DNA of 60,376 nt from a virus (taxonomy: Duplodnaviria > Caudoviricetes), in the IMG/VR virus record IMGVR_UViG_3300047548_000760, positions 1-60,376 of that record. The stretch is one strand, 5' to 3'. This document shows, one piece after another, positions 4,967-23,800 of the stretch (position 1 is the stretch's first letter; every line of letters starts with the position of its first letter). The notes beneath the pieces are model-generated. The model was not told the origin of the DNA. It was given only the letters and a program-made list of their open reading frames with translations, and made no database searches. The position numbers and the translations under genes were made by a program.

Positions 4967-4993
4967 CCCCGAGCCTCATTGCCGAGCCTGCCC

Positions 4994-7900
4994 ATGCCAC
5001 TCGTCTTTCCCGATCAAGCCGCCCAGGCGGCCACGCGCCCGGCCTCTGACGCTGCCCAGGCGGCAGCGCAAGGGGTGACGCCCCAGGCCCAGCAACCGGC
5101 GCAGCCTGCCGGCCGGCTCGTGTTTCCGCGCGAGTTGTCTCTGCGGGATGCCGGGTCGATCGCGGCCGATATGGGCACCGCGCTCTGGGAGGGCGCCAAG
5201 AACACCGGCCGCATGCTGGGCGCCACCGGTAACACGGTGGGCGGGAATCTGTCGGGCGTGGACGAGCTTGCGCGATCGCAGGCCGCAGCCGAGGCGCAGT
5301 CACCGGACGCGAAGGCCCTGCTGATGCAGGAGATCCAGCGCCGCAAGGCCGCGAACCCTGATGCTGGGTGGCTGGACGTGATCAAGAACGTCGGCGCCTC
5401 GTTCATCGGTCAGCCCGAGGGCGCGGCGCAGTTTGTGGCCGAGCAGACCCCGAACACGGCGGTCAGCCTGGGCGCTGGCATTGCAGGCGCAAAAGGCGGC
5501 GCCGCACTTGGCAGCCTCATCATGCCCGGCGTGGGCACTGCAGTGGGCGGTGTCGCCGGCTTCCTGGGCGGCATGTTCCTGGGCAACGCCAGCCTGGAGA
5601 TCGGCGGCAAGGCCATGGAGAAGTCGCAGGATCAGGCCCGCACGGGCGGATCCCTGACGGCCGACGATGCAAGCGCTGCCATCCGCGAGGGTTCCGTCAA
5701 GGGCGGCGTCATCACGGCCGTCGATGCTGCGACCCTTGGCGCCGGCCGAGGCGTGGCGCGCCTGTTCAACAAGACCGCTATCGAGGCTGGCGCCCGCGCC
5801 GAGGCCCGAGTGCTTGCCGATGCTGGCGTGGATGTCACCAGCCGCGCTGCCATCGAGCGATCGCTTGCGGCGGACCCGGTGCTGCGCGCAACGGCGCAGG
5901 AGGCCGGCAAGGTAGCCGCTCAGTCTGCGTCCAAGATTGGCAGCCGAGCCGCCACGGGCGGAACGCTGTTGGGTATGGAGACGGTCGGCGAAGGCGCTGG
6001 TGAGTACCTGGGCGAGCTGGCCGCAACGGGCAAGGCCGACAAGTACGACGCGGTGATGGAGGCGATGGCAGGGCTTTCGCAGTCCGTGCCAGAGACCGCC
6101 TGGAGCATGCGTCAGTCGCAGGGCAACGACCTGAGTGCTCGCGGCATCGAGCGCGTTGGCGGGGATCTTCCGCCCGCAGCGCCCGCACCGGCGCCCTCTG
6201 AGCCGCCCGCACCGCCTGCGCCTCCAACCCCACCGGCCGCCCCGAACAACACGATCATCCCGCCTGCCGATGTGCCGCCGCTGGACCCCACAGCGCTGCC
6301 GCCCGACCTGGACGCACAGAACCGCGACCGCACGCGCTCGGCCAGCGTGCTGCAGATGCAGAAGATCGCGCAGAACCCGGACTACCTGCGCGCGGGCCCA
6401 TCCCGCTCGCCCGACACCGGCGCGCCGATGGTGTTCGCGCAGGGCGACGACACGAGCTTGTTCCCGAGCTTCACTCGCGGCCGTGAGGACGTGGCCGTGA
6501 TGTCCGACGGCCAGCGCGTGCCGTTCCAGTACGCGGTGGTCGATGCCAGCCTGCTGCAGCCGTCCAACTTTGCCGACGGCACGCCCAATCCGCTCTTCAA
6601 CAACGAGACGCCCGGCCTTGTGAAGGCCCTGAGCAACGCCCGCAGCGCAGGCCTGCGTGCTGCCTGGGCGCAGGGCACGGCATCGGGCTATGCGGCAGAC
6701 CTTGAGGCCGACACTAAGCAGCACGGAATCTCTGTCGAGGCGATCCGCTCGACGAGCAACCCAGTCCTGGTACGCCTGTACTCGCAGTCCTCGAATACCC
6801 CGGGCATGGCCGCCCGATCGCAGGGGCAAGGCCTGGGCATGTCGCCTGGGGAACTGGCCCGCCAGGATGCGCCGCTGATCGACGGTGGCCTGCTTGCCGT
6901 GTGGCAAGGCGGGGACGTGGCGGATGCCCGAAACCTGGACTTCGTGCGCGGGTTCGTCGGCCGGCTGCAGGGCACCGGCCAGGACCTTGCGGGGATGATG
7001 ACCCAGGCTGGCACGCTCTCGCCGGACGGGCGCAAGCGCATCCAGGCGGCTCTGGCCCAGTCGGCCTACGGCGACTCGGACCTGATCGCCGAGATGTTCG
7101 ACTCCACCGACACCGACATCAAGGCGATCGGCGAAGCGCTCAAGCTCGCCGCGCCCGAGTGGGCCGACATGCGCGACTCTGCGCGCAGCGGGGCGATTGA
7201 CCCTGCAGCCGACATCACGCCGGCCCTGCTGGATGCGGTGGCCATGGTGCGCCGTGCGCGCCAGCAGCGGCAGAGCCTGTCCGACCTTGCACGTCAGACC
7301 GACATCACGACGGGCCAGACGCCTGACCCGATGGTGCTGGGCGCCCTGCGCTTGCTGTACGGCGGGGAGTACCTCACGCGCCCGATGGGCCGCGACCGCA
7401 TGGCCGACTTCCTGCGGGAATACACGCGGCTGGCCAAGGGCATCACGGCCGACGCCGGCCTGTTCGGGGACGCCCCGGCGCCGCTGGACGTGCTCACCGC
7501 ATTGACGAAGGAGACCGCAACCGATGGACAGCAGCAACAACCCGGCGCAGCAGCCGGCACAACCCAGCAGCCCGGCGCGGGCCTCCAGCAACCCAATGGC
7601 GGCAGCAATCCTGGGGGCGATGCTGGTCCGGGAGGGGCAGCGGCAGTACGACCCGGCGACAACGCAGGCGGGGCACAACCTGCTGCGGGTGGCGCAGGAC
7701 CACTGGCCAACACCGATACCGCAGGACAAGCGGCTGCCCAAGGGGTAACTGCGCCCGGCAACCAGCCGATGGTCGGTGATGCGTTTGATCCGACTGGTTG
7801 GTCAGAGCAAGAGAACAAGATCAACAAGAAGACCGGGCAGCCCATGCTTGGCTCCGGGAGGGTTCGCTTCAAGCGCGCAGACGAACGCGGATTTGAGCAA

Positions 7901-10900
7901 AGCGTCGTTGTGCAGAACGGGGTGATCGTCACATCGAACTCGGTTTCTCCACTTGTTGAGCTGACGAACTCAAGCCTCGACTTTGATGCTCCTGTGCGTG
8001 GTCGCGTTCACGTTCTCAACTCGGATGTTCAGGGACTGGTCCTTACGTTTGTTCCGGAAGATTCGTCTGGCGCGACAGCCACAAAGATGAGTCCGCGAGC
8101 CGTCCAGCAATACAAGGACGGCGTTCCCATTGAAAAGATCACGGAGACGGAGTTCTCTGACGCTGGCGGCATCAAGCCGGACGGCTCGCGCACCCCGCAC
8201 ACGACCGTTGGAGCCCTGGTCAAGGGCCCGGCACCGGGCGCCCCGGTAAGCGCGCCCGCAACGACGCAAGGAGCTTCCGATGTACGACAAGAAGGGCAAG
8301 GGCGGCGGCAAGAAGAAGCGCTGACGCCAGAAGCCGGCGCGCCTGGGCAGCAGCCTGGGGCGCCGGCCGCAGCACAGACGCCCGCTCCAGCTCCTGCTCC
8401 GCGCACCCCTGAAGCTATGGGCGACGCACTCAGGCGGCGCATTCAAGGCGACGTCCAGGCCAAGAGAGACGGCGAAGCAGCCTACCAAAGCGGTGCCGAT
8501 CGCATCCCGCCCGAGTCGATGACTGCGCCATCGCAGCGAAGGATGTGGCTGGAGGGATACGACACGGCCGCGCCGGCCTCGTCGCCCGCACCAGCACCAG
8601 CGCCGACCCCGGCCGGTGGCGCCAACACCGTCTTCACCGAGGACGCTGCAGCGGCTGCCCGTGCGCGCCTGAAGGCCAAGCTGGGCCGGCTGAACTCCGG
8701 CATCGACCCCGAGACGATGCTGGACGGCATCACGCTCGCGGGCTACCACATCGAGCGCGGCGCGCGGACCTTTGCGGCCTACGCTCGCGCGATGGTCGAT
8801 GACCTGGGCGACGCCGTGAAGCCCTACCTCGTGTCCTGGTACTTGGCCGTGCGCAACGATCCGCGCGCATCTGACTTCAAGGCCGACATGGACAAGGCCG
8901 GCGCCGTTGAGGATGCGGACCTGGACGCGCTGTTGGCGAACAAGGGCAAGGCGCCCGAGGCCGCGTCAGCCGTTCAACCGTCCCTCAACACACCGGCCGG
9001 CCGCATGGCCCTGGCCCAGGTCATTGCCGACCGGTTCATCGGTGGCGACGGCTTCAAGACCATCATCGAGGCCCGCAAGTTCATCGCAGAGGCCACGGGC
9101 GAGAAGATCGAGGCCGGCACCCAGGCCGCGAAGCTGGCCGACGAGGCGATCGAGATGGCCGTGGTCATGGCCGGGCGCGAGATTGTCCAGGCCGCACGTG
9201 CCCAGGGCCGCAGCGACAGCGTCATCTACGACCGGCTGGTGAACCTGTACGACCTGCAGCCGACGCTGGGCGTGCGCACGTCCACCAGCGTGCGAGAGCA
9301 GGCCTACAGCACGCCCGTGCCCCTGGCCTTCCTGGCGTCTCGCCGGGCCCAGGTCGGGCCCGACAGCACGGTGGGCGAGCCCACGGCCGGCAACACCATG
9401 CTGCTGATCGAGGTCGACCCCGAGCGCGCTGCGGTCAACGAGCTCAACGCCGACCGGGCGGCCAACGCTCGCGCACTGGGTTTCACGGTGACCAGCCACG
9501 ACGCTGCGCGCCACCAGCTCGCGCCCGAGAAGTCGCTGGACCGGGTGGTGGCCAACCCGCCGTTCGGGGCAGTCAAGGGCGACGACGGGCAGACGGTGGT
9601 GTTCCCGGTGGCCTCGAACTACGGCACGCGCGAGATCGACCATGCCATCTCGTTCAAGGCCCTGGACGCCATGAAGGACGACGGATCGGCGGTGCTGATC
9701 CTGGGCGGCGTGGACGCCTCCAACGAGGAAGCGATCCGCGAGGGCTATCGGAGCAAGAGCAAACGGGAGTTCTACTTCCGGCTGTACGGTCTCTACAACG
9801 TGGTCGACCACTTCACGGTCGACGGCGGTCTGTATTCCAAGCAGGGAGCGGGCTACCCTGTGGATGTGGTTGTGATCCGGGGGCGCGGCAAGGCGACCCG
9901 TGCGATGCCGGCCGCTGAACTGCCCAAGCGGTACGACAACTGGGAAGCACTGAAGAAGGAGAAGCTCGATGGATCAACCGAAGCAACCGCAACTGGCGTG
10001 GTGCCCACCGGGCCTGCCACCGGAACTGGCCGCAGTGATGGTGCCCAAGGACAGCAGCCTGGAGCCGGGGGACTGGTGGATGGCGCTGGCCGACAGGGTG
10101 CAGGAACTGGTGGACAAGGAGCCGGACCCGGACGAGGCGGCGACGTGGGCGGCACGGTCGCTGGGACGCCCGGGGCTGAGGGACAGCCAGGACGCCGGGG
10201 AGGTGCTGGTGCAGCGCAACCTGGAACTGCGGACGGCCCTGACGCTGGACGTGACGGCGCAGCCCAAGCACCCGTTTCCGGCCAAGGCCCTCGTGGAGTC
10301 CGCGGCAACGCGCCGGGCGATGGAGGAAACCGACCTGGAGACGTGGGTGGAACTGGCGGCAGCCAGGGTGAGCGCGTCGAGTCTGGACTAAGCGATCGCC
10401 GGGGCCTGGAGCAGGAGACCGAGACCCAGGTCGAATACGCGCCCCAGTCGGGCGCCGCGTCGGTGGGCACGCTGGTGCCCCGCGCCATGCGCGAGTCCAT
10501 CGCAGCCTCGCTCAAGCGGGTGGCTGACTCGGTGGGCAACATCGACGAGTTCGTCGCGGAGAAGCTGAACTTCGATCCCGAGACGCTGCGGGCCAACTTC
10601 TCGGCCGAGCAGGTCGACGCCCTGGCGCTGGCGATCATGAGCGCCGAGGCCGGCAAGGGCTTCATCATCGGGGACCAGACCGGCATCGGTAAGGGCCGGG
10701 TCGTCGCGGCGATGCTGCGCTACGCGATGATCAACGAGAGGATTCCGGTGTTCGTCACCGAGAAGCCGAACCTGTACGCGGACATGATCCGCGACCTGGA
10801 CGACATCGGCATGGGCGACGAACTGCGGCTGCAGTCCAACAAGCCGCTGATCCTGGCCACCAACTCCAGCGAGCCCATCCCCTACGTCCTGCAGCGCAAG

Positions 10901-13900
10901 TCCGGCGACACGATTGTCGAGACCGAGCACACGCTGCGTGCACCCGGGGCCGGCGCTGACCTGGAAAAGTTCTTTGACCAGATCGCGGGCAGCCGCGACA
11001 TCGGCCCGTACAAGGTTGTCTTCACCACGTACAGCCAGCTGCAGACCGTCAAGGGCAAGGTCACGGCGCGCATGCGCATGGTGCAGTCCCTGGCCCAGGG
11101 CGGCTACATGGTCTTCGATGAGAGCCACAACGCGGGCGGCACGCAGATCACGCAACCCCGCACCAAGAAGGACCGCGACGCGGCCAAGGCCGGCGAGACC
11201 ACGACGGGCCGCTCCGGGTTCGTGCGCAGCCTCGTGCGCGTCTCGTCGGGCAGCTTCTTCTCGTCGGCCACCTACGCCAAGCGCCCCGACGTGATGGACC
11301 TCTACAGCAGCACCAACATGCTGCTGGCGGTGGACCGGCCCGCTGACCTTGCGCCGGCCATCATGCAGGGCGGCGTGCCCATGCAGCAGATCGTGGCGAC
11401 GATGCTGGCCGAAGACGGGCAGTACATCCGCCGCGAGCGCACGTTCGCGGGCGTGACCTACGAGACCCGGCCGATGACGGTGGACCGGCAGACGGCCGAG
11501 AACATGGCGCAGTCCATGCGCATGATCCTGGCCTTCTCGCGCGGCAAGGAAGCCGCCGTCAAGGCAATGCAAAAGGAGTTCGACCGCGAGGGCGCCATGG
11601 TGGGCGTGTCTGGCGGCGAGAAGACCTCGGTGCAGGGCGCCAACTTCGGCGCGATCATGCACAACCTCATCGACCAGATGCTGCTGTCGCTCAAGGCCAA
11701 GGAGTCTGTGGACTTCGCCATCGAGCGCCTGAAAGCCGGCGAGAAGGTCGTGCTGACGGTGGCCAACACGATGGGCTCGTTCCTGTCGGACTATGCCGAG
11801 GAGTTTGGCATCCGCCCTGGCGAGCCTGTCACGCTCAGCTTTGCGGACCTGTACCAGCGCTACCTTGAGAAGCAGCGCGTGGTGAAGATCAAGCGCCCAG
11901 GCGGACCCAAGAGCGGCGTGCCGTACCGGCTGACCGACTCCGACCTGGGCAGTGGTCTGGTGGCGCAGTACAACGATGTGGCGCGGTTCATCCAGGAAGC
12001 CGGCTTCGGCTCCGCGCCCATCTCCCCGATCGACTACATGCACCAGCGGCTGCGCGAGGCCGGCTACAAGACCGACGAGATCACGGGCCGCAGTGTCACG
12101 GTGAGCTACGCGGGCAAGGCTCCGGTCCTGGCATCGCGCAACGCCAACATCAAGCAGCGCCTGACAGCGATCCGCGGCTTCAACAGTGGCGCAATCGACG
12201 TGATCATCCTCAACCAGTCGGGCGCCACGGGTCTGTCCCTGCACGCTTCGGCCAAGGTCAAGGACCAGCGCAAGCGGCGCATGATCATCGTCCAGGCCGA
12301 GAAGAACATCGACACCCACATGCAGATGCTGGGTCGCGTGCACCGCACGGGTCAGGTGATCACGCCGGACTACACGCAGGCCATGGCCGACATCCCGGCC
12401 GAGGCCCGGCCGGCGTCGGTGCTGCTGAAGAAGATGGCCAGCCTGAACGCCAACACCACCGCCAGCCGCAAGAGCGCGGTGACGGCCGAGGGCGTCGTGG
12501 ACTTCATGAACGACTACGGCGGTCAGGTGGCTGCCGAGTTCCTGCTGGACAACCCCGAGATCCACATGGACCTGGGCGGCCAGAAGGTGCTGGAGATCCC
12601 GGCCGAGGCCACGGAGGCCGACGAGGACCTGATCCGCAAGCTCACCGGCTACATCCCCATCCTGCCCATTGAGCAGCAGGAGGCGGTCTACCGCGACTTG
12701 GTGGACCGCTACAACGACTTGCTGGCCCGTGAGAACGCCATGGGCACCAACAAGCTCGAAGCCGCAGCGCTCGACCTGGGTGCGAAGACGGAAAAGCGCG
12801 AGCAGATCACGACCAAGCGCGACAGCCCCGTGCCGTCGCGGTTCGCCGAGCCGGCTTTCATGGAGCAGGTCGACGTGGCGCGCACGGTCAAGCCGCTGAC
12901 CAAGGCCGAGGTCCAAGAGGCCGTCAGCCAGTCGCTGGGCGGCAAGACCCCGCAGATGGTGGCCAACGAGCTCAACAGTTCCCTGGCGCAGCGCATGGAG
13001 CCGTTCCTCGTTGACCTGCAAAAGCGCCGCATGCAGCAGGGCGCCGACACGGACGGCGAGAAGCGCGCCCAGTTGGCCCAGGAGGTCGAGCGGCACCGGA
13101 TGCAGCAGTCGATCATCTCGGACCTGCTGTTTCGCTTCCAGATCGGGCAGGAGGTTTCGCTGCTGGACCAGCACCAGTCGGTGACCTACGGCGTCATCAC
13201 ATCGGTGTCGGCAGCCGGCAAGACCAAGAGCCCAGCCGCCGCTTCGGGCTGGAAGTTCACGATCGCCCTGGCCAACGGCGAGGCCCGCTCCATCACGCTG
13301 AGCGCCTCGCAGATCGGCAAGCAGTTCACCCTGCGCGCCGAGCGCGGGCCGGTGATCACGCTCAACCCCAGCACGAACGAGCCGGCCTCGATGAGGATCC
13401 CCGACCTGTTCGACGCCTACGGCGGCTCGGGCAACGTGCGGCGCGAGAAGCGCTGGATGGTCACGGGCAACCTGCTAGCGGGCTTTGCCTCGTACCCCGG
13501 TCAGATCCTCACGTACACCAAGGACGACGGATCAACCGGGCAAGGCGTGCTGATGCGTCGGGGCTTCGACTTTGAAAAGCGCAGGGGCGAGGCCAAGGCC
13601 TCGTTCCCTTCCGCAACCGTCATTCGCCTGTTCTTCACCGAGGCCGGCCGCAACGCCACGATCGGCACGCCCGATGGCGTGCTGCGCGTGAAGTGGTACG
13701 GCGGGAACTACCCGGCTGAGTTCGAGGTCGCCTCTTCCAAGCGCGAGGGCGGCAGGTTCTACCTGGATCGCGGCCTGACGGACGCCCTTGGGCGCGACTT
13801 CACCAAGGTCGGGCAGGTCATGCGCGCTGCGGTGACCGAAGACGACATGATGCGCGCCCTGGTCTACCTGATGACCGAGCGCGACGACGTAAAGCTCGAA

Positions 13901-16900
13901 GCGCAGACGAACAAGGACGTGGCCCGGCGCCTGCTGGGCCTGCCCGATGTGACGGAGTCGCAGGGCAAGCGCACGGGCGACAGACCGGCGTTCTCCCGCA
14001 CGGACGCGGCTACCAAGGGCATGACGGTTGCCGGCGTGCAGCGCGTCTCGGGCGGCGCGATGGCGGCCTGGGCAAACAAGCCCCGGCTGGTCGTGGCGCG
14101 CAACATCCAGGAGCCCAGCGTGCCGCAGGCGCTGCGCGACGAAGACGCACGCCAGCGCAAGGGTGGCGCAACGGGCGATGTGCGCGGCACCTTCTATGAG
14201 GGCGTCATCTACCTGTTCAGCGACCACCTGGGCAGCGACAAGGATGTGATCGAGACCCTGTTCCACGAGGGCCTGGGTCACTACGGCCTGCGGGGCGTGT
14301 TCGGAGATGCACTCAACGCGGTGCTGGACATGATCAACCTCGCGCGGCCGGACCTGATGCGCCCGAAGGCTGCCGAGTACGGAGCGGACCTGCGCAAGCC
14401 TGCGCAGCGCCGCAAGGTGGCCGAGGAGGTGCTGGCCAGCATGGCGCAGTCCGAGCCCTCGCTTGGGTTCGTGCGCCGGGCGGTGGCCGCGGTTCGCACG
14501 TGGCTGCGCACCAACGTGCCCGGCTTCGAGAAGTTGCGCCTGACCGACGACGAGATCATCCGCAGCTTCATCTTGCCGGCGCGCCAGTTTGTGATGCAAG
14601 GGCAGGCCCAGGCTGTTGCCAGCGCAGCAGGCGCCCAGGCGGCGTTTGCTCGCGCTTCCCAAGGCGGGCCCCGTCAGACTCCCGAGCAGCGCGCCGAGAC
14701 CATCCTGGCCACGCCCGTGACCCAGGCGCGGCCGCTTGATCGGGTGTTTCGCACTGTCTCGCGCATGACCGGCTTGGAGGCCGTGACCAACCGCATCTAC
14801 GGCCGGGCTGCCTACCTGCTGGATCGATTCACTCCTGAGACCGTCAAGGCCGGCATCGTCTCCGACTACGGCGTGCCCGAGGCGGTGATCGACATGCGCG
14901 TCATGCTGCAGGGCCGGCAGCGCCAGCAGTTGCGCCGCTCCGGCGAACTGGTGGACAAGCTGGCCAGCCTGACCCGCGAGGAGTCCCGGATTGCCTACGA
15001 GTGGATGAACATGGACGGCTCGGACCCCCGCGCCTACCTGTCCATGATGCAGGGCCTACCCGAGGAGTCCGTGCGGGTGCTGCAGGACGTGCAGCGCATG
15101 ATCGACGACCTGTCCAAGGAGGCGGTGCGCCTGGGCCAGCTGGACCCCAGGTCCTACGAGCGCTTCAAGTTCGCCTACCTGCGCCGGACATACGAGCGCT
15201 ACCTCGAAGAGTTGACCCCGCAGCAGCGGGCCAGCCAGCAGCGCGCCACCCGCATCCTGGGTGACCAGTACCGCATGCGCGGCTTGGTCGAGCCCGTGGA
15301 GATGGCCAAGATTAAGTCCGGGGACCCGGAGTGGTGGGGCCGCAAGGAGCGCGAGGGCAAGGGCGACACCGGTCTGGTGAACCAGAAGTTCATCAAGCTG
15401 GAGCGCCTGAAGCCCACGGGCGCCGGCACGATCCCGCTGCCGGGCATGACCGGCCGGCCCGATGGCAAGGTGCTTGAGGTGGTCTACTGGCCCGCCGATC
15501 GCGCCGTGCCTGCGAAGTACAGCGAGTGGCGCCAGAACGAGGTCTTTGAGGTCCGCGATGTGAAGGGCGGCAAGGTCATCCTGTGGCGCGACTTCACAAA
15601 GGACGAGCGCGAGGCCATGGGCGAGGTTGATGAGGCCCGCTTTGCGATCGCCCGCACGCTGCAGCGCATGGTCCACGATGTCGAGGTCGGGCGCTACCTG
15701 GAGGGCCTGTCCCAGAAGTACGCCAAGGCCGACGGCGACGAGATCGACGGCACCCTGGTGGAAGCCAGCGAGCACTGGCACCGGGCGTTCAAGCCGGGCG
15801 ACTGGGTGAAGGTGCCAGAGACCAAGATCACGGGCACGAGCGTGGCCAAGTACGGCAAGCTCGCCGGCAAGTACCTGCCGGGCCCGATCTGGAACGACGT
15901 GCGCTTTGCTGTGAACGGACCGTTCCAGCCGTTCGGCGAGGTCTACGGCAAGGTACTGTCGGCCTGGAAGGTGGCCAAGACGGCGCTGACACCGGCCGTG
16001 CACATGAACAACGTCATGGCCAACCTCGTGATGGCCGACTGGCACGAGGTGGGCGCGGCGCACGTGGGCAAGGCCCTGCGGATCATCCTGGCGGCCAACC
16101 AGCGCGACGGCAAGGGCGCACTTGGCAGCCTGGGCAACGTCGCTGCAAGCGGCGGCATCGCCGACCGCGAGGCGGCGCTGCAGATCATGAACCGCTACCG
16201 GGATGCGGGCGGCGACATCGGGTCATGGGCGACCCAGGAGATCGCCCGCGAGCAGATGGCCCCGCTGCTGGACGCTGTGCTGGAGGAGTTGGGGCGCAAC
16301 GGGGACGCCTCGGTGCAGGGGCAGATCGGCGTCATGGCGGCGCTGCAGCACTTGCTGCACCTGAAGCTGCCCGAGGCCTGGAGCGCGTTCAAGGCCAGCA
16401 AGCCGGCCACCGTCGCCGGCCGCGAGGCTCAGTCCATGATTGACCTGTATCAGGCCGAGGATGACGTGTTCCGGCTGGCGGCGTGGCTGGCAGCCAAGGA
16501 GCGCGGCCTGGATGACCTGCGCGCCGGCCGGGAGGCCCGCAAGTCCTTCCTGGACTACGACATCAACGCGCCCTGGATCGACGCGATGCGGCGCAGCGCG
16601 TGGCCGTTCATCTCGTTCACCTACCGCGCCGTGCCCATGCTCTTCGAGATCGCCGGCAAGCGACCGCACAAGCTGATGAAGCTGGCGGTGCTGGTTGGCG
16701 CCCTGAACATGCTGGGCGTGGCCATGTCCGGTGACGACGAGGACGAGGACGAGCGCCGTCGCCGCATGCTGCCCGAGGAAAAGGCCGGCAAGGTCTGGGG
16801 CATCGTGCCCAAGTTGATCCGCATGCCCTGGGACGACAAGAACGGCTCTCCGGTGTACCTGGACATCCGGCGCTTCGTCCCGGTGGGTGACATCGTGGAC

Positions 16901-17422
16901 ACCGGCTCCACTCAGGCGGCGCTGCCCGTGCCGCCCGGACTGATGCCCGGGGGCCCGCTGGTCATTCTGGGCGAGGTGCTGATGAACAAGAGCGCGTTCA
17001 CCGGCAAGCCGATCGTGCTGGGAACCGACACACCGACCGAAGTGGCCGGCAAGGTGTTCAGCCACCTCTACAAGGGATTCGTGCCGAACCTGCCGGGCTT
17101 GCCCGGCACTTACGCGACCGACGCCCTGGTCAACGCCGGCAGCGGCAAGACGGACGCCTTTGGGCGCCAGCAGTCGGTGGCCCAGGCGGTGGCCTCGTCA
17201 GTCGGGGTCAAGTTGGGCAGCTACCCCGAGGATGTGCTGCGGCGCAACACCATGGCGCGCGCGAGCGCCCAGGAGCGGGAGATCGAGACGGTGATGCGGG
17301 GGCTGCAGCGGCAGCGGCAGATGAATGCGATCAGCCAGGAAGAGTTCGACCGGAAGATCGAAGTGCAGCGGGAAAAGCTGCGCAAGCTGTCGCAGGAAAC
17401 GCGAGAAAAAGTGGCGCAGTAA
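4994..17422 (+). CDS. Giant DarB-like polyvalent virion/ejection protein (about 4,142 aa)
   Basis: N-terminal Gly-zipper TM region; ddrB/ParB-like domain (QNRDRTR..GAP); N6-adenine MTase (YSTP, EPTAGN, ANPPFG); Strawberry-notch-type SF2 helicase (GDQTGIGKGR, FDESHN, SGATGLSLH, QMLGRVHR); zincin-like HEGLGH; LPD38-like C-terminus. Confidence 0.9.
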   Translation: MPLVFPDQAAQAATRPASDAAQAAAQGVTPQAQQPAQPAGRLVFPRELSLRDAGSIAADMGTALWEGAKNTGRMLGATGNTVGGNLSGVDELARSQAAAEAQSPDAKALLMQEIQRRKAANPDAGWLDVIKNVGASFIGQPEGAAQFVAEQTPNTAVSLGAGIAGAKGGAALGSLIMPGVGTAVGGVAGFLGGMFLGNASLEIGGKAMEKSQDQARTGGSLTADDASAAIREGSVKGGVITAVDAATLGAGRGVARLFNKTAIEAGARAEARVLADAGVDVTSRAAIERSLAADPVLRATAQEAGKVAAQSASKIGSRAATGGTLLGMETVGEGAGEYLGELAATGKADKYDAVMEAMAGLSQSVPETAWSMRQSQGNDLSARGIERVGGDLPPAAPAPAPSEPPAPPAPPTPPAAPNNTIIPPADVPPLDPTALPPDLDAQNRDRTRSASVLQMQKIAQNPDYLRAGPSRSPDTGAPMVFAQGDDTSLFPSFTRGREDVAVMSDGQRVPFQYAVVDASLLQPSNFADGTPNPLFNNETPGLVKALSNARSAGLRAAWAQGTASGYAADLEADTKQHGISVEAIRSTSNPVLVRLYSQSSNTPGMAARSQGQGLGMSPGELARQDAPLIDGGLLAVWQGGDVADARNLDFVRGFVGRLQGTGQDLAGMMTQAGTLSPDGRKRIQAALAQSAYGDSDLIAEMFDSTDTDIKAIGEALKLAAPEWADMRDSARSGAIDPAADITPALLDAVAMVRRARQQRQSLSDLARQTDITTGQTPDPMVLGALRLLYGGEYLTRPMGRDRMADFLREYTRLAKGITADAGLFGDAPAPLDVLTALTKETATDGQQQQPGAAAGTTQQPGAGLQQPNGGSNPGGDAGPGGAAAVRPGDNAGGAQPAAGGAGPLANTDTAGQAAAQGVTAPGNQPMVGDAFDPTGWSEQENKINKKTGQPMLGSGRVRFKRADERGFEQSVVVQNGVIVTSNSVSPLVELTNSSLDFDAPVRGRVHVLNSDVQGLVLTFVPEDSSGATATKMSPRAVQQYKDGVPIEKITETEFSDAGGIKPDGSRTPHTTVGALVKGPAPGAPVSAPATTQGASDVRQEGQGRRQEEALTPEAGAPGQQPGAPAAAQTPAPAPAPRTPEAMGDALRRRIQGDVQAKRDGEAAYQSGADRIPPESMTAPSQRRMWLEGYDTAAPASSPAPAPAPTPAGGANTVFTEDAAAAARARLKAKLGRLNSGIDPETMLDGITLAGYHIERGARTFAAYARAMVDDLGDAVKPYLVSWYLAVRNDPRASDFKADMDKAGAVEDADLDALLANKGKAPEAASAVQPSLNTPAGRMALAQVIADRFIGGDGFKTIIEARKFIAEATGEKIEAGTQAAKLADEAIEMAVVMAGREIVQAARAQGRSDSVIYDRLVNLYDLQPTLGVRTSTSVREQAYSTPVPLAFLASRRAQVGPDSTVGEPTAGNTMLLIEVDPERAAVNELNADRAANARALGFTVTSHDAARHQLAPEKSLDRVVANPPFGAVKGDDGQTVVFPVASNYGTREIDHAISFKALDAMKDDGSAVLILGGVDASNEEAIREGYRSKSKREFYFRLYGLYNVVDHFTVDGGLYSKQGAGYPVDVVVIRGRGKATRAMPAAELPKRYDNWEALKKEKLDGSTEATATGVVPTGPATGTGRSDGAQGQQPGAGGLVDGAGRQGAGTGGQGAGPGRGGDVGGTVAGTPGAEGQPGRRGGAGAAQPGTADGPDAGRDGAAQAPVSGQGPRGVRGNAPGDGGNRPGDVGGTGGSQGERVESGLSDRRGLEQETETQVEYAPQSGAASVGTLVPRAMRESIAASLKRVADSVGNIDEFVAEKLNFDPETLRANFSAEQVDALALAIMSAEAGKGFIIGDQTGIGKGRVVAAMLRYAMINERIPVFVTEKPNLYADMIRDLDDIGMGDELRLQSNKPLILATNSSEPIPYVLQRKSGDTIVETEHTLRAPGAGADLEKFFDQIAGSRDIGPYKVVFTTYSQLQTVKGKVTARMRMVQSLAQGGYMVFDESHNAGGTQITQPRTKKDRDAAKAGETTTGRSGFVRSLVRVSSGSFFSSATYAKRPDVMDLYSSTNMLLAVDRPADLAPAIMQGGVPMQQIVATMLAEDGQYIRRERTFAGVTYETRPMTVDRQTAENMAQSMRMILAFSRGKEAAVKAMQKEFDREGAMVGVSGGEKTSVQGANFGAIMHNLIDQMLLSLKAKESVDFAIERLKAGEKVVLTVANTMGSFLSDYAEEFGIRPGEPVTLSFADLYQRYLEKQRVVKIKRPGGPKSGVPYRLTDSDLGSGLVAQYNDVARFIQEAGFGSAPISPIDYMHQRLREAGYKTDEITGRSVTVSYAGKAPVLASRNANIKQRLTAIRGFNSGAIDVIILNQSGATGLSLHASAKVKDQRKRRMIIVQAEKNIDTHMQMLGRVHRTGQVITPDYTQAMADIPAEARPASVLLKKMASLNANTTASRKSAVTAEGVVDFMNDYGGQVAAEFLLDNPEIHMDLGGQKVLEIPAEATEADEDLIRKLTGYIPILPIEQQEAVYRDLVDRYNDLLARENAMGTNKLEAAALDLGAKTEKREQITTKRDSPVPSRFAEPAFMEQVDVARTVKPLTKAEVQEAVSQSLGGKTPQMVANELNSSLAQRMEPFLVDLQKRRMQQGADTDGEKRAQLAQEVERHRMQQSIISDLLFRFQIGQEVSLLDQHQSVTYGVITSVSAAGKTKSPAAASGWKFTIALANGEARSITLSASQIGKQFTLRAERGPVITLNPSTNEPASMRIPDLFDAYGGSGNVRREKRWMVTGNLLAGFASYPGQILTYTKDDGSTGQGVLMRRGFDFEKRRGEAKASFPSATVIRLFFTEAGRNATIGTPDGVLRVKWYGGNYPAEFEVASSKREGGRFYLDRGLTDALGRDFTKVGQVMRAAVTEDDMMRALVYLMTERDDVKLEAQTNKDVARRLLGLPDVTESQGKRTGDRPAFSRTDAATKGMTVAGVQRVSGGAMAAWANKPRLVVARNIQEPSVPQALRDEDARQRKGGATGDVRGTFYEGVIYLFSDHLGSDKDVIETLFHEGLGHYGLRGVFGDALNAVLDMINLARPDLMRPKAAEYGADLRKPAQRRKVAEEVLASMAQSEPSLGFVRRAVAAVRTWLRTNVPGFEKLRLTDDEIIRSFILPARQFVMQGQAQAVASAAGAQAAFARASQGGPRQTPEQRAETILATPVTQARPLDRVFRTVSRMTGLEAVTNRIYGRAAYLLDRFTPETVKAGIVSDYGVPEAVIDMRVMLQGRQRQQLRRSGELVDKLASLTREESRIAYEWMNMDGSDPRAYLSMMQGLPEESVRVLQDVQRMIDDLSKEAVRLGQLDPRSYERFKFAYLRRTYERYLEELTPQQRASQQRATRILGDQYRMRGLVEPVEMAKIKSGDPEWWGRKEREGKGDTGLVNQKFIKLERLKPTGAGTIPLPGMTGRPDGKVLEVVYWPADRAVPAKYSEWRQNEVFEVRDVKGGKVILWRDFTKDEREAMGEVDEARFAIARTLQRMVHDVEVGRYLEGLSQKYAKADGDEIDGTLVEASEHWHRAFKPGDWVKVPETKITGTSVAKYGKLAGKYLPGPIWNDVRFAVNGPFQPFGEVYGKVLSAWKVAKTALTPAVHMNNVMANLVMADWHEVGAAHVGKALRIILAANQRDGKGALGSLGNVAASGGIADREAALQIMNRYRDAGGDIGSWATQEIAREQMAPLLDAVLEELGRNGDASVQGQIGVMAALQHLLHLKLPEAWSAFKASKPATVAGREAQSMIDLYQAEDDVFRLAAWLAAKERGLDDLRAGREARKSFLDYDINAPWIDAMRRSAWPFISFTYRAVPMLFEIAGKRPHKLMKLAVLVGALNMLGVAMSGDDEDEDERRRRMLPEEKAGKVWGIVPKLIRMPWDDKNGSPVYLDIRRFVPVGDIVDTGSTQAALPVPPGLMPGGPLVILGEVLMNKSAFTGKPIVLGTDTPTEVAGKVFSHLYKGFVPNLPGLPGTYATDALVNAGSGKTDAFGRQQSVAQAVASSVGVKLGSYPEDVLRRNTMARASAQEREIETVMRGLQRQRQMNAISQEEFDRKIEVQREKLRKLSQETREKVAQ
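7524..7748 (+). CDS. Nested +1-frame gene, 74 aa
   Basis: AAGGAG at 7508-7513; GC-rich third positions switch to this frame across a Gly/Gln/Ala linker of the host gene. Confidence 0.6.
   Translation: MDSSNNPAQQPAQPSSPARASSNPMAAAILGAMLVREGQRQYDPATTQAGHNLLRVAQDHWPTPIPQDKRLPKG
8280..8324 (+). CDS. Nested +1-frame basic micropeptide MYDKKGKGGGKKKR
   Basis: AAGGAG at 8268-8273; all codons are preferred ones (TAC GAC AAG GGC CGC) while the host frame uses GTA/CGA/CAA/GAA. Confidence 0.55.
   Translation: MYDKKGKGGGKKKR
9969..10391 (+). CDS. Nested +1-frame gene, 140 aa, globular and acidic
   Basis: AAGGAG at 9956-9961; strong GC3 bias in this frame; host frame is Gly-rich with GGA/GGT/ACT codons. 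Confidence 0.75.
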   Translation: MDQPKQPQLAWCPPGLPPELAAVMVPKDSSLEPGDWWMALADRVQELVDKEPDPDEAATWAARSLGRPGLRDSQDAGEVLVQRNLELRTALTLDVTAQPKHPFPAKALVESAATRRAMEETDLETWVELAAARVSASSLD

Positions 17423-17644: not shown

Positions 17645-18733
17645 TCACTGTTGCGGACCGGCTTTCCGGGCCGTTGGAGTGACCCTGTCGCCCAGGCGCA
17701 CGTAGTGCTCGGTCATGCGTATGTTCTTGTGGCCAAGCTGGCGCTGTGCGGCCTGTAGCCCGTCGGCGTCGGCCTTGTCGGTGCCGGCCTTGGCGCGCAG
17801 GTCGCGGAACTGGAAGGCTTCGATGGCGGTGGCCATCTCCTCATCGCCGGCCTTCCTGGCGATCTTGGCCGCCTTCTCTCTGGCGTCATCGAAGGCGTTG
17901 TCCAGGCCGTAGGCGGTCAGCCTAGAACCCTGCCGATTCACCACCAGGGCGAGGTCGAGCACGCGGTTTTGGCGCTTGCGCTCGGCGATCTCGGCCAGCT
18001 TCATGCCGAGGTCGTTGGGCCCGGTTGAACCTTCGAGCTCGATGCGCAGTTTCTTGGCGGTTTTGCCCTGACCGACTCGCAGGACGCCGTCGCGCACGTG
18101 GGTGGCGGACATCTTCAGCACGTCAGCCGGTCGCTGGCCGGTCAGGTAGGCGAGGTCGATCGCGTCCTTCAGCGGCTGACTGGCAGCGGCGTAGACGGCC
18201 TGCAGCACCTCGTCCTCGACGTAGATGTCCCGGCCCGTCTCCTTGAAGCCCTTGATGCCCGCGCAGGGGTTGGGCAAGGCGGTGACGCCCCAATCACGGG
18301 CCATGTTCCAGACGTGCGACAGCAAGGCCTTCTCGCGGTTGGCGCGGACCTTGGCCGTCTCGCCCCGCCACGTCAGGTACTGGCGCACGTGCTGCGGCTC
18401 GATGGCCTCGAAGGCGATGGGCGGGTCGTTGAAGAACTCCAGGAGCTTGGCCATCTCCTTGATGTTGTCGGACTGCGTGCGCGGGGCCTTGGTGGGAACC
18501 ACCCGCTGCAGGTACAGATCAGCCACGTCCTTGAAGGTGGTGACCGGCGCTGCCGAATCGTCCTTGGTCAGTTCGGCCCACTTCTTGATGGCAATCACGT
18601 AGTCGGGCCCGAGTGGGATCTCGCGGCGCGGCTTGCCCCCGGTGTCGAGGTAGTAGTACGTCTTCCCGCTCGGCTTGGTGCGCGCCCGCATGCCATCAGG
18701 CAAGTTTAAGTTCTTCGTGCGGCGGCGTCCCAT
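17645..18733 (-). CDS. int: Tyrosine integrase
   Basis: LTGQRPADV, FRDLRAK, LGH, TEHY catalytic pattern; MGRRRTKNLNLP arm-binding N-terminus. Confidence 0.95.
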   Translation of the reverse strand: MGRRRTKNLNLPDGMRARTKPSGKTYYYLDTGGKPRREIPLGPDYVIAIKKWAELTKDDSAAPVTTFKDVADLYLQRVVPTKAPRTQSDNIKEMAKLLEFFNDPPIAFEAIEPQHVRQYLTWRGETAKVRANREKALLSHVWNMARDWGVTALPNPCAGIKGFKETGRDIYVEDEVLQAVYAAASQPLKDAIDLAYLTGQRPADVLKMSATHVRDGVLRVGQGKTAKKLRIELEGSTGPNDLGMKLAEIAERKRQNRVLDLALVVNRQGSRLTAYGLDNAFDDAREKAAKIARKAGDEEMATAIEAFQFRDLRAKAGTDKADADGLQAAQRQLGHKNIRMTEHYVRLGDRVTPTARKAGPQQ

Positions 18734-18836
18734 GGCGTGCTTTGTAGCAAAAGTAGGCGCCAACCATACCCGGCGCGCGCAAGGCGCGTCGATGGGACGA
18801 TGATGGGATTAGGCTGGCTGCTGCCGGCCTGGGGGG

Positions 18837-20509: not shown

Positions 20510-20899
20510 TCACTCCGCAGGGTAGATGATCACGGAGCCCGGCGCCACCGAGTTGTCCTTCGGGTAGGCGTCTTTGACCGCTTTCAGGCGGCTGTAGAAG
20601 GGCTCGACACGGGGCATATGGAAACCATCCATGGCGTGCCAGAGCATGTCCATTTGCTCTCGGACGCTTGGGTATACGTCGGCGCGCGCCTTGCGGTAGT
20701 CCATGTCGACGGGCGGCGGCGGCCTGCCGCCAGCTATGACCTGACCTGTTGCAGGGTCCACGGCGTCAGCCTCGACGTCGGCCTGAGCCTCGACTACGAA
20801 CTCGCTCGGTCCTGCGGCCTGAAATTCAAGGACGTCATCCGTGCAGACGCCAGCCCGCAGGATCTCACCGGCAGCGTTGTAGACAACAAAATGCTTCAT
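20510..20899 (-). CDS. Tail-fibre assembly-like protein
   Basis: ATGA-coupled to the fibre gene; DYRKARADVYPSVREQMDMLWH...VKDAYPK motif. Confidence 0.7.
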   Translation of the reverse strand: MKHFVVYNAAGEILRAGVCTDDVLEFQAAGPSEFVVEAQADVEADAVDPATGQVIAGGRPPPPVDMDYRKARADVYPSVREQMDMLWHAMDGFHMPRVEPFYSRLKAVKDAYPKDNSVAPGSVIIYPAE

Positions 20900-23800
20900 C
20901 GCTTCATGACCAGTACGCTTAAGCGCATGGTTCCCGTGTAGTAGCTTCTCGTCACGGTGATCGTGTGGTTTCCGGCGCTTGGCGCCACAACAATCACGCC
21001 GGTCGGGGTTCCGTTATCGGTAAGTCCTGTAACGATGGGGCCATATACATCAGCAGTACCCCCGCCGAACTTGCCGCCAGAGCTTCCGGCAGTAAAAGTT
21101 GGTGGGCCCAGGTAATACTGAATGAACAGCGCGGACGCTGATGCGGGAACACTAACTGTCACACTTACCGTGTCGGTGGTGGAGGTTGCAACGGAACTAG
21201 ACGACGCCGCATTACCGACGATCTGGTCAGTGTTGACGATGGCAGCGGAAAGCGATCCACTAAAGGACGCCGAGCCGTTGACGATACTGAAGCCCGGCGC
21301 GTAGACGTTTCCGGTGTTGTCGACCTGGAAGTAGCGGTTGTTGTTGGCGTTGCCCAGCAGTAGGCCGTTCGGTCCCAGGTGGAAGCCGTAGTTGTTGACC
21401 GCCGGCCACGCATACCCCGTGAACGCGCCTCCGTTGATCGAGCCCCTGATGTTGAGGGCGCCCCCAGCGGAGTCGAACTCCATGGACTGGCTGCCGCCGC
21501 TGTTGACGCGGAAGAACGAAACCCCGTCGTTGCGCTTGAGGAAGATGTCGTTGAAGTTGCTACCAGACAAGGACAGGCCGTAGTGGCCCGAGCTTGGGCC
21601 GACGTCGTGGCCGAGCTGCACGCCACCAGCGGTGATCTTGAGATTGGCCCCGTCAATCTTTGTGGCCGTGATCGAGCCCGCGCCGATGCGGTCCGCACTG
21701 ATCGTGCCGGCCGTGATCTTGCTGGCGTTGAGGTCGTTGATCTTGGCGTTGGTGATCTGGGCATCACCGATCTTGGCTGTCGTGATCGCGGCGTCAGCGA
21801 TCTTGGCGCTGTCGATGGCCGCGTTGCCGATCATCGCGTTGACGATGGCCCCGTTCTGGATGGCCGCAGTACCCACCGCGATGGCGTTGGCCGCGATCTT
21901 GTTGGCCGTGATGGCGCCGTCGACGATCAGGTCGGCAGAGGCCACCTCTTGGCAGCGAATGGCTTGGGCGGCTTGTCGCGCAGTTCCTGAGCCACTGGAG
22001 TACCGGAACCAGACCATGATCGCCGCTTCTTTGGCGCTTGCGGGAATCGGCCTCGCAGTGCCAGCGCCGAACTGCCCGCCGTAGCGCGCCCAGTCGCCGG
22101 GGGTAGGCAGGCCACCATATGTGTACCCGGCGTATGTGCCGCCCCATCCTGTGCTGGCCCCCGTCAACTCCGTTCCATTCCCATCCCACATGCGAACGGT
22201 CACGTACATATTGCGGTTGTTGCCCGCATCCACAAAGAGCTGCGCAGTGGCGCTGTATGTGCGAGAAGAGTTGATTGGGAACCGCCGGCTGTTGACCTGC
22301 ACATCAGTGCTGGAGCCGGCTGGTAAGTCAAAGAAGTACCGACCTTCAGCGGAGCCCGCAGCGCTGGACCCCTGCACTACGGTTCCGCCCGTGATGGTCC
22401 ACGCGCTCAGGTCCATGCAGGCGGGGTCGTCGTTGAGCGCGGTTCCCTGGCCCGTTACCAGCAACTTGTCAGTGGTGATAGCGCCCGCAGAAATCTGGGC
22501 CGCGCTCACGGCCCCCGCCGCGATCTTGCCCGCGGTGACGGCGTTGGCCGACAGCTCGTTGGCGGTTACCGCGCCCGCAGCGAGCTTGGCAGTCGTGACA
22601 GCGCCAGCGTCAATCTTTGCCGCTGTGACCGCATTGGCTGCGATTTTGGAAGCCAGGATGGAGCCATCAACGATGAGGTTGGCGTCTGCCTTCAGCATCA
22701 GGCGAATGCCTGTTGCCAACTGCGTGCCTGTCCCCGAGAAGTTCGACAGCAGGCCGACCCTGATATACCTTGCGCCGGCCGGGATGGTGGCGCTCTCGTT
22801 AGGCCCGAAACTGATACGGTATTCAGTCCAAGCGGCCGGCAGGGTGCCGTTGACAAGGCCGAAATAGTGGTACGTCCCTTGGCTGGGCCATCCGCTGGCG
22901 CCGCCGCTGATGATGCCGTCGTTCGCGTCGTAAAACGCGACCGTCAGGTAAGTAGTGCTGGAGCCAGTCTCCTGGCGGGTCCAAATGCGGTACTCGTAGT
23001 TTCTGGACGCATCAAGGGGCACACGCTCCGACACGAACGTCATGCCTGCGGTTGCGCAGCGTAGAACGGTGGCGCCAACTGGGCTTGTCGCGTCAGCAAT
23101 GATTGAAAGCCCGGTGCCGATCCAGGCAGTCACATCTTGCGTGTTGGGGTCAGCGTTGAGAGCCATGCCCCGGCCCGTGACCAGGAGCTTCTCAGTCGTG
23201 ATCGCGCCCGCCGCGATCTCGCTCGCGCTGATGGCTCCCGCCGCGATCTGGGCCGCAGTGATGGTGTCGGCAGCGATGTTGCTGGCCGAGATGGTGTTTG
23301 CCGCGATCTTCTCGCCCGTGATGGTGGCGGCGGCGATCTCCGTGGCGGTGATGGTCCCTGCCGCGATCTTGGCAGCCGTAACCGCATTGGCAGCCAGCTT
23401 GTTGGTTGCTATGGCGCCGTCAACGATGAGATCGGCGGTGGCGGCCTGATCCAAGATGACGGCGGAAGCGCTCACGCTCCCACTAAAGGTGTTGTTCGCC
23501 TCGTTGTAGATGAGGAAGCGCACCGAGACGGCATTGGCGGGAACTTGTCCCTGCGCAGTCAGATCCTGCGTACCGGAGCCCGCGGTAGACGTGAGCGTAA
23601 TGTCGGCAAGATCTGCGTTGAGCCGGTTGTAGAAACGGGCGGCAACATAGAACGACTGGTTGCTGTTGTTGCGCATCCGGGCGCGCAGCCGCACCCAGGT
23701 GCCAATGGAGGGGACTGCAACTGACCCGCTCCAGATGTGCTTGCGCAACGCGCCCGGGTTGTTTGTGGGGTGTCCACTCCAGAGCGAGGCGTGCTTGCCA

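Follow-up and report, generated by a model that had tools for sequence, protein, structure and literature searches.

Can the segment that links two enzyme domains of a giant phage protein also encode, in another frame, a folded protein of its own? The question is raised by a complete 60,376-bp virus record with a GC content of 67% (IMG/VR record IMGVR_UViG_3300047548_000760; Caudoviricetes), the whole of which is referred to here as the window. One of its genes encodes a giant polyvalent, DarB-like protein in which a methyltransferase (MTase)-like part is followed by a glycine-rich spacer and a helicase part. An earlier sequence-only reading had noticed that the +1 frame across this spacer resembles an ordinary acidic, globular protein, which it supposed might regulate or inhibit the MTase-helicase unit before packaging. 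Our comparative analysis indicates that positions 9969 to 10391 very probably constitute a real, separately translated gene, lying out of frame in the spacer-coding segment of the giant gene. A nested globular protein is strongly supported because the Shine-Dalgarno (SD) motif and ATG are conserved, both frames are open, there is purifying selection, the predicted fold is confident, and non-overlapping homologues exist. The features concerned are as follows.

9951..9953, plus strand: TGA that shuts the +1 frame upstream of the nested open reading frame (ORF), read from the sequence
9956..9961, plus strand: SD motif AAGGAG, 7 nt before the nested ATG and encoding Lys-Glu in the host frame (sequence; alignment of relatives)
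9968..10393, plus strand: Gly-rich, hydrophobic-poor host-frame spacer between the MTase-like and helicase parts (composition; ratio of nonsynonymous to synonymous change, dN/dS, about 1.08 in the host frame)
9969..10391, plus strand, +1 frame of the giant gene: nested gene P0002, with an ATG start and 140 codons plus stop (ORF, homologues, hidden Markov model (HMM), selection, fold)

Two readings of one spacer

The nested ORF lies wholly inside the giant gene (4979..17422), on the same strand and at an offset of +1, where no stop interrupts the +1 frame between 9954 and the TAA at 10389-10391. The sequence-only reading gave its start as 9956, which is the first base of the AAGGAG motif; the ATG itself is at 9969. 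The 140-amino acid ORF that it described between the MTase-like and helicase parts is present, and the peptides that it quoted are found in the translation. The two readings of the same bases differ greatly in composition. The host-frame spacer of 141 residues is 34% Gly and contains 1% Phe, Ile, Leu, Met, Trp, Tyr and Cys taken together, compared with 4% and 20%, respectively, in the nested reading, in agreement with the earlier description of a G-rich spacer of the same extent. The nested protein is acidic, as had been proposed, with 24 Asp and Glu residues to 14 Lys and Arg. Its claimed use of preferred codons is also borne out. Over 9968-10330 the GC content of third codon positions (GC3) reaches 0.85-0.93 when read in the +1 frame but only 0.47-0.57 in that of the host, for which values of about 0.9 are usual elsewhere in the giant gene; the codon-position signal changes frame exactly over the nested ORF.

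Taken in the window alone, such an ORF is not remarkable. From the density of +1 stops elsewhere in the giant gene, the probability of 140 open +1 codons is about 0.01, which by itself is unconvincing in a 67% GC genome with long spurious ORFs.

Conservation in related phages

A scan of viral contigs with the helicase segment yielded 75 loci at 47-90% identity. The sequence-only reading had suggested a tBLASTn or HMM search for homologues nested in other DarB-like genes, and in 66 of these 75 loci an HMM of the nested protein (alignment A1) finds a +1-frame match immediately upstream of the helicase block; tblastn with P0002 also matches the +1 frame upstream of the helicase block in relatives. 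Five of the nine misses (L008, L019, L045, L055 and L063) are without upstream DNA, so that 66 of the 70 loci with upstream DNA carry the gene. A tblastn search of GenBank phages and PLSDB plasmids with P0002 gave no match.

From 56 loci, 42 distinct nested proteins of 128-154 amino acids were obtained, from phages with GC contents of 0.38-0.68. Upstream, the host frame runs open for no less than 2.69 kb in each locus; the +1 ORF is open as well, and the third frame contains 6-23 stops over the same stretch. The per-locus chance of an open +1 frame ranges from 4e-5 to 0.03, and that of the host frame staying open over an ordinary gene in that phase from 1e-8 to 0.27. Because the nested ORF is conserved in relatives, chance is ruled out as its explanation. 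Linkers that keep the host amino acids and gain +1 stops, which the sequence-only reading had named as the pattern that would contradict it, are not what is found: there are no +1 stops, and it is the host reading that is poorly kept.

The distance to the helicase block varies. At L065 (1157-1612) and L076 (2072-2611) the nested ORF is 0.4-1.4 kb farther from it, with a helical host-frame domain inserted after the nested ORF; this helical insert is found also in L075, which has no nested ORF.

Selection on the two frames

Mean pairwise differences at nested codon positions 1, 2 and 3 are 0.38, 0.30 and 0.45, which makes host position 3 the most conserved and host position 1 the most variable. 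Nested amino acid identity exceeds host identity in every divergence bin, and an OLGenie-style count over 115 pairs of 2-30% nucleotide divergence gave rough dN/dS values of 0.50 for the nested frame and 1.08 for the host frame. The need to keep the host frame open leaves its own mark. T occurs in 0 of the 1755 contexts where T at nested position 3 would make a host-frame stop, and in low-GC phages T at nested position 3 stands at 0.03-0.08, compared with 0.33-0.38 in the helicase part of the same genes. These patterns point to purifying selection on the nested frame and to a host spacer that drifts about neutrally, needing only openness. Nearly all constraint falls on the short reading, and the long one need only be an open, flexible tether between two enzyme modules.

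Start signals and translation

An exact AAGGAG stands at exactly 7 nt before the ATG in 41 of the 42 distinct sequences, the exception being AAAGGAAAA, and the nested ATG is invariant. The third bases of the host codons AAG and GAG never vary; the next Lys codon switches between AAA and AAG, and the flanking Leu residues use five codons. The invariance of the host-synonymous bases of AAGGAG thus indicates selection on host-synonymous sites. The same arrangement marks genuine starts elsewhere in the window, where AAGGAG-N5-9-ATG has seven matches against 1.0 expected: five are starts of other genes, one is the nested ORF and one (8268) opens a 14-codon ORF. The ATG directly follows a +1-frame stop in 36 of the 42 distinct sequences; in the window the stop is five codons upstream. 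This placing argues against entry by frameshifting. We propose that ribosomes would start internally on the mRNA of the giant gene at AAGGAG-N7-ATG, and that the small protein would be made whenever the giant protein is made.

Fold and family of the nested protein

An AlphaFold2 model built from a 66-sequence alignment has a predicted local distance difference test (pLDDT) score of 92.2 and a predicted template modeling (pTM) score of 0.86, with two short strands followed by six helices. Structure prediction was one of the checks named by the sequence-only reading, and the confidence of the model upholds its description of the protein as globular. The net charge is between -5 and -14 in all 42 nested proteins.

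The protein belongs to no Pfam, PHROG, NCBIfam or PADLOC family and has no usable match in the ESM Atlas. A profile search of the Protein Data Bank (PDB) gave a best E of 0.27. The model fared no better: Foldseek against the PDB gave a best E of 0.96, the VIA wide structure search a best Z of 3.2 (root mean square deviation (rmsd) 3.9, 87 residues aligned), and the search of BFVD a best E of 0.26. No Ocr or ArdA chain is among the fold matches, although a missing match leaves room for mimicry. Similarly, no nuclease family or fold was found, although a divergent nuclease could escape such searches, and no known anti-defence protein or fold resembles the nested protein in the PHROG, PADLOC, PDB and BFVD searches.

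An exhaustive HMMER search of 1.84 billion representatives returned 75 clusters at E ≤ 1e-3. The majority consist of ORFs called on short contigs, with lengths of about 130-135 amino acids, and every one that bears a name is a 'hypothetical protein'. No giant protein with the domain in its main frame is among the 1.84 billion representatives; the longest true match has 425 amino acids, a 969-amino acid match being repetitive, in six stretches, and not counted as true. A homologue search limited to longer proteins found none, which is weak evidence.

Some homologues are encoded by ordinary, non-overlapping genes, and in several homologues (P0008, P0026 and P0010) the domain forms the C-terminal end of a longer protein. 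P0008 (WP_128000194.1) of Piscinibacter defluvii joins a T5orf172/GIY-YIG-like domain and a zinc ribbon to the nested-protein domain; its T5orf172 part matches the PADLOC candidate PDC-S57. Its locus (L079) has no adjoining helicase gene, and a type IIG restriction enzyme lies 5.5 kb away. P0026 combines ankyrin repeats, which match PADLOC PDC-M72A, with the nested-protein domain. Two low-GC metagenome contigs (L077 and L078) encode two-domain homologues of about 340 amino acids beside an XRE-type regulator. The C-terminal domain of these, of about 200 amino acids, has no Pfam match, and its best Atlas match, at 0.79, is a lead only. Searches of the genome and viral contigs with alignment A2, and of the viral contigs with P0010 and P0008, gave no match.

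In the stand-alone genes of L077 and L078, the frame corresponding to that of the host is broken by 15-23 stops, and T makes up 0.41-0.42 of third positions. These low-GC genes are a natural single-coding control for the dual-coding footprint. Since L077, L078 and L079 hold no MTase-helicase gene, the nested-protein domain can work without the MTase-helicase unit, and this lowers the idea that the protein regulates that unit.

The neighborhoods of these genes have features of their own. L077 and L078 share a divergent XRE-type helix-turn-helix regulator, a small membrane-like protein and a 77-amino acid Cys/His-rich protein, and in L078 single-domain and two-domain paralogues stand in tandem, with stop and start overlapping. 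At L079 (10891-11322) the would-be host frame is free of stops over precisely the domain-coding part, closing 44 nt past the gene stop, with no helicase following. In DNA of 72% GC this open frame may be due to chance or may be a trace of descent from a nested copy.

A second clade in Bacteroides phages

Among GenBank phages, those whose helicase is similar are all remote; Bacteroides phage BS-TP4 is at 33% identity. This phage is reported in passages of PMC12694917 to be prevalent in gut viromes. In a single coding sequence (CDS) of 5391 codons it repeats the layout of methylase, spacer and helicase, and its spacer also contains a +1 ORF, of 119 amino acids from the first Met (L081, 3609-3971; PQ571277.1). 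The GenBank entry annotates only the giant CDS gp3 over this stretch, and the +1 ORF is unannotated. All 40 of the further viral loci of this clade (28 distinct) keep a +1 ORF of 103-144 amino acids with the host frame open. These ORFs have a conserved ATG behind an A-rich leader and end 24-102 nt before the helicase block. The position differences are 0.38/0.30/0.47, and dN/dS, from uncorrected and non-independent pairs, is 0.39 for the nested and 1.03 for the host frame.

The model of the Bacteroides-clade protein (pLDDT 90.6, pTM 0.84) has a similar order of elements with one helix fewer, and has no match in the PDB (best Z 3.5). By hhalign, the two nested families align colinearly but not significantly: E was 0.044 with a single sequence, 0.018 (probability 2.6%) between the families and 0.0034 (probability 9.6%) with a broader profile. 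Homology of the two clades is suggested by these alignments, short of being demonstrated; they may be distant homologues or independent occupants of the same spacer.

Alternative explanations

That the +1 reading yields no separate protein, being a chance open frame of GC-rich DNA, the relic of a compensated frameshift or an assembly error, is scarcely credible. A 67% GC window does contain many long spurious ORFs, such as a 928-amino acid antisense ORF at 10388..13174, and other +1 ORFs of the giant gene read as junk. However, the nested ORF is open in relatives with GC contents down to 0.38, in which the third frame has up to 23 stops, and purifying selection on the nested frame only, a conserved SD motif and ATG, a confident fold and single-coding homologues all speak against a frame without a product. 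The same layout recurs in 42 plus 28 distinct independent assemblies; together with selection and the conserved SD and ATG, this contradicts both the compensated-frameshift fossil and the assembly error, which were rejected, as was an arrangement of three separate genes with accidental read-through. Programmed frameshifting into the +1 frame, which would produce a truncated N-terminal polyvalent protein ending in the nested domain, is also very improbable. SD-like sequences stimulate frameshifting, and the domain is C-terminal in the longer homologues P0008, P0026 and P0010. Against this stand the +1 stops close before the ATG, the invariance of the ATG itself, the 7-nt SD spacing, which is that of initiation, and the lack of a conserved slippery run in the aligned start regions, judged by eye only. 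We regard as improbable, to a lesser degree, that the ORF was brought into a methylase gene long ago as the cargo of a selfish element, that the host frame passes through it as a loop without harm, and that the insertion has since become fixed and perhaps domesticated. The model for this is the 'ShiLan domain', described in passages of PMC11855218 as an HNH endonuclease inserted out of frame in a mycobacteriophage DNA methylase gene. Such an insertion would explain a pre-existing gene lying inside another; the host frame does read through without stops, and in one homologue the domain is joined to a GIY-YIG-like T5orf172 domain, whose fold occurs in homing enzymes. Yet no nuclease family or fold is detected in the nested protein, and its distribution is near-fixed (66 of the 70 loci with upstream DNA) instead of disjoint. 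Identity in the nested protein rises and falls with that in the helicase (Spearman 0.66) and exceeds it in just 21 of 861 pairs, by more than 0.10 in only 2, contrary to what active horizontal spread would give. The canonical SD motif here is lacking in ShiLan elements according to the same source (PMC11855218, in part).

The preferred reading, a separately translated gene, leaves the role of its product to be considered. The protein could be an autonomous effector in phage-host conflict, for instance an acidic decoy or inhibitor, that shares only the transcript with the giant gene and is held in place by the overlap. We consider this a serious possibility, at less than even chance. It would fit the homologues at L077, L078 and L079, which have no MTase-helicase gene nearby, the fusions to conflict-type domains with their PDC-S57 and PDC-M72A matches, the type IIG restriction enzyme 5.5 kb from P0008, the net charge of -5 to -14 in all 42 proteins, and the description of polyvalent proteins, in passages of PMC5512222, as strings of independent effectors. 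On the other hand, no similarity to a known anti-defence protein or fold was found, and one nested stop would delete the gene cheaply, yet it is kept in 66 of 70 and 40 of 40 loci, always with the giant gene. The same retention speaks for a trans-acting accessory of the polyvalent protein, which in the producing cell would serve its assembly or packaging or would restrain its enzymes: one stop would be enough to lose the gene, with hardly any effect on the spacer, but wherever the giant gene is found the small one is kept. An accessory role is the one to which we tentatively give most weight, while holding it at somewhat less than an even prospect; roles other than these two make up the remainder. 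A complex predicted for the nested protein with the MTase-like and helicase parts scored 0.00, which counts neither for nor against binding.

Several observations weigh against a separately translated gene with an accessory role, or temper what can be claimed for it, and the entire case for the nested gene is comparative. Four loci with full upstream DNA (L064, L072, L073 and L075) lack an HMM match. L064 and L073 have shorter +1 ORFs with SD-like leaders, resembling N-terminally truncated relatives; In L072 and L075 there is no +1 ORF, and a different inserted domain is found in the spacer. In an Acinetobacter phage, the spacer of a still more remote MTase-helicase protein is acidic and holds no nested ORF of at least 40 codons; the nested gene is therefore not universal. 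The dN/dS values derive from uncorrected p-distances and phylogenetically non-independent pairs, which leaves them rough in value but clear in direction. A promoter and terminator scan of 9000-11000 found nothing; because no promoter-like site is nearby, we infer internal initiation on the mRNA of the giant gene, and expression of the small gene thus relies on such initiation on a long mRNA. Lastly, the accessory role is without direct support, and the stand-alone homologues lack the supposed partner.

Origin of the overlap

The small gene is probably the older reading and the spacer the younger, a view that we hold with only slight preference. It is judged older because the same domain exists as ordinary single-coding genes elsewhere. 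Codon-position GC is closer to the typical profile in the nested frame in 40 of 42 cases, but position 3 is distorted by the overlap. Since the codon-position profile of low-GC phages does not tell the age of a frame, it is chiefly from the stand-alone homologues that the notion of an older gene and a younger spacer derives. On this view, the methylase and helicase modules would have been joined by read-through of a pre-existing small gene, or such a gene would have been inserted into a spacer already there.

A bolder version, which we think unlikely but worth stating, is that methylase-helicase polyvalent proteins have long had the small protein as an obligatory partner, encoded in the other frame of their inter-domain spacer in the phages of at least two bacterial phyla, and that the spacer was born by fusing two enzyme genes across the small gene. 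If this were true, one DNA stretch would supply both a subunit and the tether joining its two partner domains.

The giant gene and its phage

The host gene and its enzymatic parts are the following.

4979..17422, plus strand: host gene, encoding a polyvalent (DarB-like) protein of 4147 amino acids (single ORF; Pfam domains)
9101..9964, plus strand, bounds approximate: methyltransferase-like region of the giant protein, with an NPPF motif at 9554-9565 (NPPF; weak Pfam matches)
10631..12538, plus strand: Sno/'Strawberry notch'-type helicase core of the giant protein, comprising AAA_34 (10631-11494) and Helicase_C_4 (12074-12538) (Pfam)

Pfam matches above the curated cut-offs are ddrB-ParB at amino acids 445-600 (E 6e-15), AAA_34 at 1885-2172 (E 4e-19) and Helicase_C_4 at 2366-2520 (E 1e-21), and the helicase label for the downstream part is, on these sequence matches, solid. 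In the upstream part, the NPPF motif is invariant across 35 aligned relatives. The MTS, UPF0020 and N6_Mtase matches of Pfam to the MTase-like region are all below cut-off (E 0.05-0.3), and the region has no match among PDB sequences; the MTase label is therefore held as likely, short of proof. With a DdrB-like ParB domain, a methylase-like region and a Sno/SNF2-type helicase in one predicted polypeptide, the giant gene fits the class of polyvalent proteins of phages and conjugative elements set out by Iyer et al. in 2017 (PMC5512222, in part). By eye, an HExxxH-like stretch is seen at window positions 14000-14100 (about amino acid 3010), possibly a metallopeptidase of the polyvalent type; Pfam found nothing on this segment.

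Other +1 ORFs of the giant gene, at 7197-7505, 7524-7748, 8545-8802 and 8907-9242, were rejected as out-of-frame junk or as kept only in near-identical relatives. Two low-complexity stretches rich in Gly, Ala, Pro and Gln (7538-7720 and 8168-8440) show a drop in host GC3 to 0.52-0.67 and a rise in +1 GC3 to 0.80-0.86. The +1 ORF 7524..7748 (74 amino acids) is kept only in the two closest relatives, and the stretch 8168-8440 is interrupted by +1 stops. These GC3 shifts could be relics of similar events or a mere effect of composition. The 928-codon ORF on the minus strand (10388..13174), opposite the helicase part, is typical of GC-rich coding DNA and was not counted as a gene.

Integrase, portal, large terminase, major capsid, internal virion and tail-fibre genes mark the virus as a temperate tailed phage. 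A tyrosine-integrase-like gene (17645-18763, minus strand) comes right after the giant gene on the opposite strand, and a tail-fibre-like protein of 2087 amino acids is encoded at 20896-27159 (minus strand). The giant gene is transcribed opposite to the structural module.

Relation to known systems and significance

Nested phage genes are known as a kind, a classical example being Rz1 inside Rz. As in Rz1/Rz and overprinted genes generally, the locus described here has a same-strand, out-of-frame ORF wholly inside a longer ORF, with its own start and selection on both readings. In textbook overprinting the nested frame is young and poorly structured. Here, in contrast, the nested reading appears well folded and constrained and has single-coding homologues, whereas the long host reading appears unconstrained and disordered.

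The nearest published parallel, by analogy, would be the ShiLan insertion. As portrayed in parts of PMC11855218, it too has a full gene in another frame inside a methylase-bearing phage gene, with the host frame reading through as a loop or spacer and the inner gene overlooked by annotation pipelines. The present gene differs in having no detectable nuclease, in being near-fixed and co-diverging with the host gene instead of spreading, and in its canonical SD motif and ATG. It differs further in occupying the inter-domain spacer of a giant polyvalent protein and in that a second clade, in the phages of another phylum, shares the layout.

The Dar system of phage P1 offers a precedent for the accessory role. 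Passages of PMC12810830 describe a giant methylase-helicase virion protein, DarB, with which the small proteins Ulx, DdrA and Hdf are packaged, and so small partner proteins of such giants would not be without example. The P1 accessory genes are ordinary neighbours, not nested ones, and the likeness is one of description, not of sequence or fold. Packaging in the virion, with injection, is known for P1 DarB (PMC12810830, in part) and for JC1 gp69 (PMC9144972, in part); excerpts of the latter state that a homologue of the Dar accessory proteins was not found for the DarB-like giants of Bcep22-like phages. A gene hidden in a polyvalent-protein spacer seems not to have been described: a word search of the available text of PMC5512222 found neither 'overlapping' nor 'frameshift', 'nested' only for a hairpin structure, and no spacer-hidden gene, and a search of the literature, supplements being outside its scope, found no description of such a gene in a polyvalent or DarB-like spacer or of the nested-protein family. 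The kind of arrangement is thus familiar, and what is new is its occurrence in a polyvalent-protein spacer and the uncharacterised family that it encodes.

The constrained reading is the short, nested one, the long reading drifts and the family has single-coding members as well, so that the usual view of nested frames as young does not hold here. With one family in both single-coding and dual-coding form, this is a clean natural case of overlapping genes. Gene callers that forbid nested ORFs will keep missing the nested gene, and it would be lost without notice if such giant genes were engineered or 'synonymously' recoded. Should the protein be made, an unannotated, uncharacterised family without a known fold joins the giant counter-defence proteins of phages, which are common in temperate phages.

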